DNA of 55,170 nucleotides from a virus: the IMG/VR virus record IMGVR_UViG_3300045988_134649; one strand, given 5' to 3'. The notes under the pieces were generated by a model that did not search any database, was not told the origin of the DNA, and saw only the letters and a program-made list of their open reading frames with translations. The translations under genes and the position numbers were made by a program. Below, in pieces: positions 30,050-49,400 of this stretch. Each line of letters starts with the position of its first letter. The stretch's first letter is position 1.

Positions 30050-30332
30050 ACTATTTTACGTTACGAAAATAAAGATACCGAATAATCCACGAACGGACTA
30101 TTCGGCATCAAAGAAGTTACTGACACGATTTGGCAGAAGATTTTGCTTTAGCCAGCAATACCTTAAATAAATCCCAACCTTCAATTTAACAATTACACCG
30201 TTAATGGTTAACAAGTACATTTACCAGCTAAACCATGTTATAAGATGGCTGAACAAAGGCTCATAATTTGCACAACTCCCACAAAACCGTACCTTTGCAA
30301 TGTGTTTTTCATAGTATTAGATTAAGGTTAAT

Positions 30333-30369
30333 AAAAAAGATTGGCTGTCTGGGAAGATAGCCTTTTTTT
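30333..30369. terminator. Bidirectional terminator-like hairpin between the early and late blocks
   Basis: GGCTGTC (30343-30349) / GATAGCC (30356-30362), flanked by an A-run (30333-30338) and a T-run (30363-30369). Confidence 0.55.
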
Positions 30370-30396
30370 GTAACCATTGGCAATATCTTTTCTTTA

Positions 30397-46854: not shown

Positions 46855-47675
46855 TACTCTAATCCAAAGATTTTTTTATCAGCAATAATGTCTCGGTTTG
46901 CTTCCAAAAACTCTATGAAATGCTCGCAGTGTGCCGTAAGCAGCTTAATCGTCTGTTCATGGTTATAAGTGTAGTATTCCGGGTATTGCGTTCCGCTAAT
47001 TAGTGGCGTCCGGCTGGTACCGCCCTTCATCTGATAGGCAGTGTACTCAAACGCTTTCACGCTTTCCATCTGACCGGAAGCAATCAGACAGTAAGGATAT
47101 ACATGGCGCTGCCAGCCGTGTTCATACTTGCCAAAATCATACTTAGATGTCGTCTTGATATCATATACAGTATCACGAACGAGCTCATCTATATACCCAT
47201 AAAGCTCCACATCACCATAGCGAGTGGGAATGACTGCGGACACAAAGACTTGGGACAATGCACCGGAAAAATACTTCGACTGCTCTATACACCAGCTACG
47301 GTCAAATAAGAAATTACGCTCTGGCGCGATATCAGTAGCAGGAAAATATACCTGAATGGTATTCGTTTCTCCATCACCGATAATGGTGTATGGCTCCCGT
47401 TCGCTTGGTATATGCTTTTTCTTGTGGATATAGCAGTCTATGACAGCATTAAAGGCCGTTCCTTTATCAGCTGCCTCACTCTCAAACGGGACACGGTTTA
47501 TCGCATCAAGTAGGCTTTGCTTCAGCTCCGCTTCAATTACTTCCGGACTTTTCTTATATTCCCCCGTTTCATTATCGACATTCCAGAAGCTCTCTACTTG
47601 TTCATCAGCCCGTAAATACTGCTCGAATTTATCAAGCAGTGACGGGTAGAATCTGTATTTAGGCTGCTGGTTCAT
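46854..47675 (-). CDS. PD-(D/E)XK-type exonuclease (Cas4/RecB-like fold candidate)
   Basis: GYIDELVRDTVYDIKTTSK gives a D...D-x-K arrangement. Neighbours are recombination genes. Confidence 0.5.
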   Translation of the reverse strand: MNQQPKYRFYPSLLDKFEQYLRADEQVESFWNVDNETGEYKKSPEVIEAELKQSLLDAINRVPFESEAADKGTAFNAVIDCYIHKKKHIPSEREPYTIIGDGETNTIQVYFPATDIAPERNFLFDRSWCIEQSKYFSGALSQVFVSAVIPTRYGDVELYGYIDELVRDTVYDIKTTSKYDFGKYEHGWQRHVYPYCLIASGQMESVKAFEYTAYQMKGGTSRTPLISGTQYPEYYTYNHEQTIKLLTAHCEHFIEFLEANRDIIADKKIFGLE

Positions 47676-48597
47676 ACCTTTTGCTGAGTTTGTTAAACTT
47701 CAAGCCAAGTCTCTTGCACTTCTCATTGAGCATCATGCCTGCCCGTACCTTGCTGTCAAAGATATGCGTCATGGTGTCTAAAGCTTCCCGAACAGAATTG
47801 GCAGATTGTGTATCAGTCACTTGTTCCACTGCGTCACGGATAGCATCAAGAACTGCATCATATTCGGAAGATAGTTCCGTCTGCTTCGTCTGATACTCCT
47901 TATAAGTACTGATGATTTTCGTCATGAAATCATTCTCACCCGTTACGGTACCGGACTCATCAATGATAACGGGTATCTTGATACGAGAAGGAAGATTACA
48001 AGTATTCTTCCCGTAGAACTTCTCGCACGGGTCAAAAGAAATAGTTCTATCTTTACCGATAGCTTCCATGTAACCAACCAAATCCAACTCCTTAATCAAA
48101 TCACCGGCAGATGAGCCACCAATCTCCGGACGTATCTGTTTTTCGTCGCCTACTTTCTCCTCCCGTTCATGAGCCACGAAGATAACAGACTTGCCCATGA
48201 GGGTTACTTGGTTAACGAAGTTGATGAACATGTTCTTACGTACTCCGTAGCCTTGCAAAGAAAGGGTACCATCCGCTTTCTTCATCTTCGGATTCGCTGC
48301 CATAATCGCCTTATCCATAAAAGAAAGCATCTTTCCGGCAGTATCAATCACAATAGTGGAAAACTCCTTGATTTCTTCGGACGAAAGTACCTGGTTCGTC
48401 TCGTCCCAGCTTGTAATCTGGACGGTCGGTACACGATGGGCGGCATTGACACGGTGAATACCGCCGTCATAATCGAACAATACCGGATTGGGAGCCGATA
48501 ATGCAAGAGTTGTTTTTCCCATGCCAGGTTGGCCGTAAATCAGTGCTGACAAGGTAGTCTTAACGGTCAGCTCGTTAGGTCTTTTGATAAGTCCCAT
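47659..48597 (-). CDS. Sak4-like / AAA_24-type recombination ATPase
   Basis: Start at MGLIKRPNEL (ATG 48597). Walker A IYGQPGMGKTT. Walker B-like IVIDTAG. Confidence 0.65.
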   Translation of the reverse strand: MGLIKRPNELTVKTTLSALIYGQPGMGKTTLALSAPNPVLFDYDGGIHRVNAAHRVPTVQITSWDETNQVLSSEEIKEFSTIVIDTAGKMLSFMDKAIMAANPKMKKADGTLSLQGYGVRKNMFINFVNQVTLMGKSVIFVAHEREEKVGDEKQIRPEIGGSSAGDLIKELDLVGYMEAIGKDRTISFDPCEKFYGKNTCNLPSRIKIPVIIDESGTVTGENDFMTKIISTYKEYQTKQTELSSEYDAVLDAIRDAVEQVTDTQSANSVREALDTMTHIFDSKVRAGMMLNEKCKRLGLKFNKLSKRYEPAA

Positions 48598-48621
48598 AAT
48601 AGAAAATATTAAAGTGGTTAA

Positions 48622-48666
48622 TAAAAAAATAGCCAAAGGAAAGCCCCGAAGCGTATTCTCCGGGGC
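48622..48666 (-). terminator. Rho-independent terminator closing the tRNA-like cluster
   Basis: Minus strand: GCCCCG (48661-48666) / CGGGGC (48643-48648) followed by TTTCCTTTGGCTATTTTTTT. Confidence 0.6.
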
Positions 48667-48812
48667 GCAAACGACAAATACTCCTAATCCTATCCGATTT
48701 CGCATTACCTTTCAGATAGAGTCAACGGCTAACCGATGCCGCGCGGATGATTCCCTGCGCTATCTTCGCCCTACTCTCGGACTAAAAGCGGATTTTCTCT
48801 CATAAAGGCTTG

Positions 48813-48943
48813 TAGAAACGGATGGATTCGAACCACCGACCGCCGCTTGTGGTGCTCTCCCATTAAGCTAAGAATCTACTTGAGAGAATCGAACTCTCAA
48901 CCTTCCACCACACACGGTGCTCTATCCACTGAGCTACGTTCCC
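48813..48943 (-). ncRNA. 131-nt tRNA-like 'dumbbell' RNA (outer tRNA scaffold plus inner permuted tRNA-like domain)
   Basis: Hand fold:
- Acceptor GGGAACG/CGTTTCT (G1:U72 and G3:U70 wobbles), then A73.
- D arm GCTC-AGTGGATA-GAGC.
- 12-bp helix CCGTGTGTGGTG (48906-48917) / CACCACAAGCGG (48843-48854) replaces the anticodon arm.
- 51-nt insert containing TGAGAG-TTCGATT-CTCTCA and a D-arm-like AGCTTAATGGGAGAG.
- Variable loop CGGTC.
- T arm GGTGG-TTCGAAT-CCATC. Confidence 0.6.
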
Positions 48944-49037
48944 AGAATAGGTGAACTATTTTCACAAACCGTTCACCTTGAAACACAAACAAAAAATAAA
49001 ACACGACAAAACTACTAAATAACCCTCTCTTGGATTG

Positions 49038-49105: not shown

Positions 49106-49196
49106 ATATTTGCCTACCATATCTTCACAGACCGGGCAGGCAGGTCAACAAAGTTGCTCCCGGATAGGCGGTCAAGCCACACCGGGATAGTCACTT

Positions 49197-49286: not shown

Positions 49287-49400
49287 TGGACAATGCGGGA
49301 TTTGAACGCCGCGACCTGTACATGAAACCTTTAAACAATACCATGACAAATTACCAATACTAACTACATGTACCGCTCTACCAAGCTGAGCTAATTGCCC
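49287..49400 (-). tRNA. tRNA-Ala-like gene with a 42-nt AU-rich insertion in place of the anticodon loop
   Basis: Hand fold:
- Acceptor GGGCAAT/ATTGTCC (G3:U70), then A73.
- D arm GCTC-AGCTTGGTA-GAGC.
- 7-bp helix GTACATG (49367-49373) / CATGTAC (49318-49324) enclosing 49325-49366.
- Variable loop AGGTC.
- T arm GCGG(C)G-TTCAAAT-CCCGC with one bulged C. Confidence 0.6.

Follow-up and report, generated by a model that had tools for sequence, protein, structure and literature searches.

A putative double-elbow tRNA chimera, joined anticodon stem to anticodon stem, in temperate Bacteroides phages

Introduction

When a stretch of phage DNA appears to carry two transfer RNA (tRNA) genes side by side, the question arises whether it encodes two RNAs or one. 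Such a case is found at positions 48813..48943, on the minus strand, of the IMG/VR virus record IMGVR_UViG_3300045988_134649, a stretch of 55,170 nucleotides (nt) that is referred to in its entirety as the window. The locus, here termed element C, had been described in a sequence-only reading as a single RNA in which the anticodon arm of a tRNA scaffold runs on into a second tRNA-like domain, and both the span covered by the tRNA model and the covariation among relatives uphold this description. Element C is composed of two tRNA bodies joined anticodon stem to anticodon stem, one with free, processable ends and the other closed; this structural part of the interpretation is held with high confidence. 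With regard to the RNA as a whole, we favor the view, at a probability of about 0.6, that the phage encodes element C as a small, tRNA-shaped RNA without decoding function, produced as one molecule of ~131 nt; its outer body would serve as a processing scaffold, and its invariant inner payload would engage a host factor as a decoy or adaptor.

Sequence and fold of element C

Read from 48943 to 48813, the 5' part of element C is GGGAACG-UA-GCUC-AGUGGAUA-GAGC-A-CCGUGUGUGGUG-GAAGGU-UGAGAG-UUCGAUU-CUCUCA, and the remainder is AG-UAGAUU-CU-UA-GCUU-AAUGGGA-GAGC-A-CCACAAGCGG-CGGUC-GGUGG-UUCGAAU-CCAUC-CGUUUCU-A. Its parts are as follows, with conservation across the element C family (see the next section) where applicable.

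48813..48943, minus strand: element C, the complete dumbbell RNA of 131 nt, comprising an outer tRNA body and an inner tRNA-like payload
48937..48943, minus strand: 5' strand of the outer acceptor stem, GGGAACG; 7 of 7 pairs with double-sided changes, 99.6% of cells paired
48919..48934, minus strand: outer D arm, GCUC-AGUGGAUA-GAGC; stem near-invariant (a single G:C to G:U change at one pair)
48906..48917, minus strand: 5' strand of the long helix, CCGUGUGUGGUG (CCGUG, UGUGG, UG), which forms the outer anticodon stem and then the inner "anticodon stem"
48882..48898, minus strand: inner T arm, GAGAG-UUCGAUU-CUCUC, with the full T-loop consensus; 100% paired, family variation limited to A:U to G:U
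48870..48881, minus strand: closed mini "acceptor" hairpin of 3-4 base pairs (bp), AAGU-AGAU-UCUU; loop variable
48854..48868, minus strand: inner D arm, GCUU-AAUGGGA-GAGC, with UA on its 5' side (U8/A9 analogues); GG of the loop invariant
48843..48854, minus strand: 3' strand of the long helix, CACCACAAGCGG (CA, CCACA, AGCGG), partner of 48917..48906
48821..48837, minus strand: outer T arm, GGUGG-UUCGAAU-CCAUC; 3 of 5 pairs compensatory, 100% paired
48814..48820, minus strand: 3' strand of the outer acceptor stem, CGUUUCU, with two wobbles (G1·U72 and G3·U70)
48813, minus strand: discriminator position, A

At first sight the locus resembles two tRNA genes, and, as first described, neither half closes alone: the 3' flank of the first unit is AGUAGAU, and the 5' strand of the second finds partners at 4 of 7 positions. 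Instead, GGGAACG (48943..48937) pairs with CGUUUCU (48820..48814) across the full 131 nt at 7 of 7 positions, two of them G·U. These wobbles work only on the minus-strand transcript, so that the acceptor pairing is specific to that strand. The order of the enclosed segments (variable-like region, T arm, mini hairpin, D arm) is likewise present on the minus strand as it had been read.

The unconstrained minimum-free-energy fold reproduces the proposed dumbbell architecture (-43.6 kcal/mol, z = -2.06), and pairs form with probabilities of 0.88-0.99 in the long-range acceptor stem and of 0.83-1.0 in the long helix. The helix had been described as having 12 paired positions, including one U·G and one G·A, and all of these pairs can form where they were placed; its last one or two pairs (U:A and G:C), however, compete with the inner D stem GCUU/GAGC and its position-26 analogue, so the helix is better taken as 5 + 5 bp. 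It is best read as a 5-bp outer anticodon stem (CCGUG/AGCGG, ending in the G·A), a stacked 5-bp segment (UGUGG/CCACA) and two possible competing pairs. Beyond it, the inner domain is circularly permuted and closed, consisting of the T arm, the 3-4-bp hairpin and the D arm, and an anticodon loop is absent. A two-state switch, in which CUCUC would pair with either flanking GAGAG, had also been suggested. It received no support: the alternative CUCUC:GAGAG(85-89) pairing has a probability of 0.00 and is ~3.6 kcal/mol worse under constraints, and G85A, present in most family members, disrupts one of the alternative pairs without compensation.

Covariation and conservation across the family

Homologs of element C were gathered from four sources. 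The neighboring Sak4-like protein led to 80 IMG/VR loci; two DNA-pattern scans of IMG/VR were performed, the second of which gave at least 120 matches; a scan of GTDB species genomes yielded 11 contigs, every one from the genus Bacteroides; and 90 of the 119 matches of an architecture-level metagenome scan belonged to the element C family. By these means, 41 distinct sequences were collected, of which the 39 full-length ones were aligned (alignment A3) and scored on the structure that the sequence-only reading had proposed. The variant counts for element C in this text refer to these 39 sequences.

Across the alignment, 96.5% of cells are paired, and the covariation score is 0.267 compared with 0.129 ± 0.007 for shuffled alignments, none of 500 shuffles reaching the observed value. 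When the partners were slid by 1-3 columns as a control, pairing fell to 40-58%. The long-range acceptor stem is compensatory at all seven pairs, with 3-6 pair types per position, whereas the inner stems are essentially invariant. The long helix covaries in its outer half: pair 2 is C:G in 16 variants, U:A in 21 and U:G in 2, and pair 4 is U·G in 32, U:A in 6 and C:G in 1. Pair 5 is G·A in 39 of 39, and the inner 5 bp are constant, except that one variant is unpaired at one pair. Given the double-sided acceptor changes and the shuffle and slide controls, element C is a single selected structural unit, not two tRNAs, pseudogenes or an integration scar.

The two halves differ sharply in their mode of evolution. 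Family members differ freely in the outer stems, the variable loop, the discriminator (A, U, C or G) and the outer D loop, the last of which varies in both length and sequence. In the 68-nt block that extends from the G·A through the inner domain, only ~10 positions are variable and the stems are essentially constant; the inner D stem is invariant except for one pair (U:G to C:G), and the fourth pair of the mini hairpin, U·U in the window copy, is A:U in 26 variants. The invariant elbow nucleotides of the inner domain include the analogues of U8, A14 and G18G19, the UUCGA of the T loop and the G53:C61 analogue; in the sequence, they comprise the UA that precedes the D stem, the A-A-N-G-G of the D loop and the G:C pair that closes the T loop. 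The outer body shows the pattern of change of a scaffold, without a conserved acceptor identity, whereas the inner 68 nt are almost invariant in sequence.

These data bear on the proposal that the locus comprises two adjacent tRNA genes or pseudogenes, or remnants of phage attachment (att) sites, between which pairing is only apparent. Temperate phages often hold partial tRNA copies at att sites, the window contains an integrase gene, and a gathering run of the tRNA model RF00005 with Rfam default filters reports only the downstream (3') half (48877..48813, 31.1 bits). Such remnants would not explain compensatory acceptor changes at 7 of 7 positions over 131 nt when neither half closes alone. 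Element C also lies away from the integrase and the prophage ends, its location varies between phages, and true degeneration is seen in decayed copies with internal deletions, namely L187, which has lost the inner D arm, and L150, with a deletion ahead of the outer T arm. Covariation refutes this proposal, to which we give practically no credence.

Relation to tRNA, introns and Y RNAs

With permissive filters, RF00005 matches the whole of 48943..48813 at 43.9 bits (threshold 29), with a 69-nt insertion at the anticodon loop. As in a tRNA, the acceptor stem (7 of 7 pairs) and the T stem (3 of 5) show compensatory changes. A 5-bp anticodon stem with a 7-nt anticodon loop is lacking, as the helix continues for 10-12 bp into the second domain, and ARAGORN detected no tRNA and no transfer-messenger RNA (tmRNA) across the whole window. 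Because the anticodon loop is absent, element C cannot decode codons, and it is not a decoding tRNA.

Decoding could be rescued if the insertion were a small intron whose excision restores an anticodon loop. The insertion does sit exactly at the anticodon-loop position of an outer body that scores well as a tRNA, and phage tRNA genes with group I introns are known (PMC3984707). An insert of 69 nt, however, is far below group I size, no intron family was matched at E values up to 10, and the helix is continuous apart from the single G·A, leaving no bulge-helix-bulge; removal of the insert leaves no plausible 7-nt loop. Neither the invariant T-loop and D-loop elbow nucleotides, which are not expected of an intron, nor the variation of acceptor identity and discriminator, which is unlike that of one isoacceptor, fits this explanation, and we regard it as very improbable.

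The inner domain also recalls the tRNA-like module of the bacterial Y RNA YrlA, and it is conceivable that element C is a true YrlA-family Y RNA that binds Ro60/Rsr and gates it or tethers it to an exoribonuclease. The likeness that had been noted holds for the order of modules, which is that of YrlA, and the YrlA model RF02553 does align, at 22.6 bits (E = 0.038 in a 901-nt search). Moreover, YrlA-like RNAs occur in phages (PMC4201824), YrlA-type RNAs were found in viral contigs, and the motif UGUGUGU(U/G)G on the 5' side of the T arm is common to element C and metagenomic YrlA-like RNAs. Membership in the family does not follow from this likeness. The score lies well below the gathering threshold of 69, and a regular-expression search of the 131 nt found no GNCGAAN0-1G motif, which lies near the 5' end of YrlA and is its putative Ro60 contact (PMC4201824). 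The YrlA gene has rsr as a same-strand neighbor at a distance of no more than ~4 kb (PMC4201824); here, a Pfam scan of the 10 open reading frames (ORFs) flanking element C and of 30 more from the non-structural half revealed no TROVE, vWA-Ro or RtcB domain, and no TROVE/Ro60 gene lies within 4 kb. A full tRNA body occupies the position of the Ro-binding stem. With the score, motif and gene-neighborhood tests all failing, YrlA membership was dropped, and an Ro60-binding Y RNA appears improbable.

Apart from tRNA and the weak YrlA match, no family in Rfam 15 was matched at E values up to 10, including any intron or tmRNA family. Searches of annotated phage records returned just three short matches, in unannotated records; full-text searches of a literature collection found no description of the RNA; and a review of non-canonical tRNAs (PMC7609411) does not cover this type. 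From its sequence, element C appears to be a "double-elbow" tRNA chimera that matches no described RNA family.

Several other RNAs were observed in the course of these searches. A set of YrlA-like metagenome RNAs scoring 39-45 bits, below threshold (L281, L282, L285, L286, L294, L310, L314 and L340), shares a layout in which the motif CUCUGUGUGUUG is followed by a T arm, a hairpin, a D arm, ACAGA and a further T arm. The RNA of L282 has an RtcB gene immediately upstream and genes for SPFH- and VIT-domain proteins downstream. L302, L342, L276 and L299 contain concatenated T-arm/hairpin/D-arm units or spacerless back-to-back mini-tRNA repeats, and they appear to be poly-tRNA-like RNAs.

The same architecture in unrelated metagenomic RNAs

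Three metagenomic RNAs of unrelated sequence have the same dumbbell layout, with a tRNA body, an inner T arm, a mini hairpin and a D arm:

L332:4329-4464, plus strand: dumbbell RNA
L279:7282-7403, minus strand: dumbbell RNA
L387:1600-1722, minus strand: dumbbell RNA

A covariance model (R1) built from the Bacteroides element C family gives 138-158 bits to family members (144.5 to the window copy) and at most 53 bits to ordinary tRNAs, and it assigns 100 bits to L332, 72 to L387 and 70 to L279. When these three were added (alignment A4), compensatory changes were seen in the helix (8 of 11 pairs), the inner T stem (2 of 5) and the hairpin (3 of 4), in an alignment that was itself fitted to model R1 and whose added members are possibly analogues rather than homologs. 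In mid-helix, L279 has tandem G·A pairs, an echo of the conserved G·A of element C, at the place where L387 has A:U pairs. The neighborhoods of L332 and L279 gave no PHROG match, and the only Pfam match, in L332, was to a sigma factor. The double-elbow architecture is real and recurrent.

Distribution, phage context and the cassette

The element C family occurs on gut phage contigs in the hundreds; it is found on more than 120 IMG/VR viral contigs (a lower bound) and on 11 Bacteroides genome contigs from at least 9 species. The window itself derives from a temperate Bacteroides phage or prophage, with Sak4-like, NinB, SNF2, VRR-NUC, integrase and PcfJ/PcfK genes. Element C and the early and replication genes share one strand. 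Across phage groups, it invariably keeps to that strand and to early or replication modules; its location relative to protein genes differs between groups, the neighbors differ as well, and no ORF travels with it. Close relatives (L030-L064) lack element C, and in these genomes element B, a tRNA-like gene described below, abuts the Sak4 gene. The difference corresponds to a cassette of ~400 nt without an ORF, made up of a -7 box, a leader hairpin, element C, a trailer and a terminator:

49007..49014, minus strand: Bacteroides-type -7 box TAGTTTTG, a single motif match and weak evidence
48950..48977, minus strand: leader hairpin GGUGAAC...GUUCACC, read from the sequence, ending 6 nt before the mature 5' end (G1)
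48633..48812, minus strand: 3' trailer (~170 nt) with the intrinsic terminator at its end, in the same cassette as element C
48666..48643, minus strand: hairpin of the intrinsic terminator, GCCCCGGAGAAUACGCUUCGGGGC, followed by a U tract, from a terminator scan

A scan for sigma-70 promoters gave matches at chance level, leaving the one -7 box. Other family members also have a hairpin just 5' of the start of element C, and the same terminator ends tRNA-like arrays in other phage groups.

This arrangement is relevant to the possibility that element C is purely cis-acting processing punctuation, where cleavage by RNase P and RNase Z separates and stabilizes the flanking early mRNAs and the released RNA has no function. 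Element C is co-directional with its neighbors in early operons and stands beside other anticodon-defective tRNA bodies, and the hairpin immediately 5' of it in many groups could protect the upstream fragment. For such a purpose, a bare 68-nt body such as element B would suffice, and the near-invariant 68-nt payload with its second elbow would be left unexplained. Because element C has its own terminator 180 nt downstream, it does not lie here between two cistrons of one mRNA. Pure punctuation is, in our view, unlikely.

Several side observations concern the cassette and its surroundings. The trailer (48633-48812) is conserved within phage groups, as illustrated by the ...GUUUACGGGCUGCC...ACACGACGGAAAGACGCCGAA... 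of L082, L099 and L258, whose trailers share their first ~12 nt (CAAGCCUUUA) with that of the window; it may be a further structured RNA. A conserved leader of ~45 nt, AACUUUGUUAACCUGCCUGCCCGGUCUGUGAAGAUAUGGCGGGCAA, is located upstream of element B (49106-49150) and upstream of element C in L090, L099, L182, L258 and L374. It precedes different tRNA-like genes in different phages, and may represent a common promoter or processing module that moves along with the RNA genes. The ORF at 47659-48705 (minus strand) probably starts at ~48597 (MGLIKRPNELTV...) and not at 48705, since its first 36 codons overlap the trailer and terminator and the cassette-less relatives start at the homologous MSLIKKPNELTV. 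Elsewhere in the window, a full-length match to the FopS family of Bacteroidetes small RNAs was detected at 30302-30372 on the plus strand (70.8 bits, threshold 56), in an intergenic gap inside the phage and antisense to the surrounding genes.

Other chimeric tRNA bodies and the question of charging

Two more aberrant tRNA-like genes lie just upstream of element C; these genes, like the phage-borne nature of element C, had not entered the sequence-only reading.

49400..49287, minus strand: element A, a 114-nt tRNA body (40.2 bits) with an AU-rich insert of ~45 nt in the anticodon loop
49105..49038, minus strand: element B, a 68-nt tRNA body (43.2 bits) with a 3-4-bp anticodon stem and a tetraloop, CUC-AUUU-GAG

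Over 15 variants in relatives, each of the two shows compensatory changes in the acceptor and T stems. The core of the element A insert is conserved (UUGGUAAUUUGUCAUGGUAUU.UUUAAAGGUUUCAU), and element A looks like another scaffold-plus-payload RNA. Element B has no anticodon, and all 15 variants keep G3·U70 and A73 despite a compensatory change of C4:G69 to A4:U69; it may be a substrate or mimic for AlaRS.

Element C could similarly be an alanine-accepting mimic, charged by AlaRS through G3·U70 and A73 and serving as a sponge for AlaRS or EF-Tu, an alanine donor or a mini-tmRNA-like molecule. AlaRS needs no anticodon, the window copy carries both determinants, and these are kept in six acceptors of its subclade (GGGAACG, GGGAAUG, GGGCGGU, GGGGAUG, GGGAGUG and GGGAGCG), next to an element B in which G3·U70 is constant. 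Across the family, by contrast, position 3:70 is G·U in just 13 of 39 variants, the others being C:G (9), U·G (9), U:A (4), A:U (2) and G:C (2), and the discriminator may be A, U, C or G. Given that both vary family-wide, aminoacylation is unlikely to be the conserved function; a tag ORF, pseudoknots and an ARAGORN tmRNA call are absent as well. Alanine charging is possible for the window subclade only, and as an account of the family it is quite unlikely.

Sister phages contain more chimeric tRNA bodies. Type-II-like forms with a GCGGAAUUGGUAGACG D arm and inserts of 25-60 nt occur downstream of element C in L088, L100 and L104, and at L121:2716-2830 and L144:1575-1672; tRNA-like genes with anticodon loops of 4, 8 or 13 nt are located at L144:1765-1835, L098:9526-9612 and L082:6920-7001.

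Proposed function and its implications

The view that element C combines a processing scaffold with a host-directed payload draws on the anatomy described above. The outer half has a 7-bp acceptor stem stacked on a T arm together with an elbow, which are the features recognized by RNase P and the 3'-end machinery, and the 3' flank of element C is N73-C-A-A, like that of the canonical tRNA genes of sister phages. The outer body would recruit the tRNA maturation pathway of the host, with RNase P acting at the 5' end, followed by 3' trimming and CCA addition. Maturation of this kind would free element C from the early transcript and give a stable RNA, as occurs with engineered tRNA scaffolds and herpesvirus tRNA-microRNA chimeras. 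The invariant payload, a tRNA elbow on a sequence-specific helix, would then be the working part, and it may bind, titrate or tether a host factor that recognizes tRNA elbows, in analogy to the tRNA-like (effector) module of bacterial Y RNAs, without Ro60. Stems that are conserved without covariation point to sequence-specific recognition, and the occurrence of elements A and B and of other non-decoding tRNA bodies in sister phages fits a general scaffold strategy. A role as decoy or adaptor accounts for these features most economically and is proposed with low-to-moderate confidence.

Several points weigh against this interpretation. Because covariation is absent from the inner stems of the Bacteroides family, support for their fold comes from tRNA-consensus nucleotides, thermodynamics and the analogy with the unrelated dumbbells, for which the dependence of alignment A4 on model R1 has to be borne in mind. 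The pair probability of the inner D stem is only ~0.04 in the thermodynamic model, although low computed values are common for D stems. The invariance of the payload could also stem from recent horizontal spread or from pairing to a nucleic-acid target. Furthermore, no partner protein is encoded adjacent to element C, and the putative function is deduced from anatomy.

A broader scenario may be sketched, which we put forward as speculative. Bacteroides phages may use natural tRNA scaffolds for an early array of payload RNAs, among which the dumbbell would be the most conserved. Its second elbow would be a Ro60-independent, Y-RNA-like decoy or adaptor that captures a host elbow-binding protein, for example a tRNA-targeting defense nuclease or toxin, or an RNA-processing enzyme, and the design would have arisen or persisted in unrelated lineages (L332 and L279/L387).

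Mimicry of tRNA is a recurrent theme, with examples in tmRNA, Y RNAs and viral tRNA-like structures, and the double-elbow design, if this scenario holds, would establish regulatory RNAs derived from tRNA as a new class. The scaffold-plus-payload arrangement, if correctly interpreted, would be a natural counterpart of the engineered tRNA scaffold, and it would offer a handle on the binding target of the Y RNA tRNA-like module and may expose a phage counter-measure against tRNA-binding host factors. The family is abundant in phages and prophages of human-gut Bacteroides, and its presence in cultured strains such as B. xylanisolvens XB1A (NC_021017.1) makes it experimentally tractable; B. acidifaciens DSM 15896 and B. 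congonensis are further candidate lysogens. Annotators should be aware that series of apparent "tRNA pseudogenes" in Bacteroides phages are conserved structured RNAs.

Comparison with known systems

Among known RNAs, YrlA (RF02553; PMC4201824) shares with element C a permuted T arm, an acceptor-like hairpin and a D arm, closed by a stem, with the elbow nucleotides retained, and both RNAs occur in phages. The closing stem of YrlA leads to the Ro60-binding region with GNCGAAN0-1G, whereas in element C a complete tRNA body supplies the closing stem as its anticodon stem; element C lacks the motif and rsr, and its hairpin has only 3-4 bp. With canonical tRNA (RF00005), element C shares the acceptor stem, D arm, variable loop, T arm and discriminator, and its 3' flank resembles that of the neighboring phage tRNA genes. 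It differs in having 69 nt, including a second elbow, in place of the anticodon loop, in being rejected by ARAGORN and in the lack of a family-wide acceptor identity.

In phage T4, the tRNA gene cluster includes the genes for RNAs C and D (species 1 and 2 RNA), small stable molecules of ~120-140 nt whose function is unexplained (PMC3014915). T4 rnaC resembles element C in its paired ends and canonical T arm, but it has no D arm, no second T/D elbow and no sequence similarity; the tRNA model fails to detect it, and its score with the tRNA-Sec model is no higher than 17.5 bits. Both were dropped as candidate homologs, as rnaC shares only the acceptor-like closure and the T arm, and rnaD shares nothing.

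The tRNA-like domain of tmRNA resembles element C in being a non-decoding mimic with a long helix in place of an anticodon arm, and the window copy even has G3·U70. In contrast to tmRNA, element C has no mRNA-like ORF and no pseudoknots, its D stem is full, and G3·U70 is not conserved in the family.

In engineered tRNA scaffolds, a payload is inserted at the anticodon stem and the tRNA body drives processing and stability; in the tRNA-microRNA chimeras of the gammaherpesvirus MHV68, the tRNA body does the same for a foreign RNA. The former are artificial and the latter belong to a eukaryotic virus, whereas element C is natural, bacterial and phage-borne, and its payload is itself a tRNA elbow.

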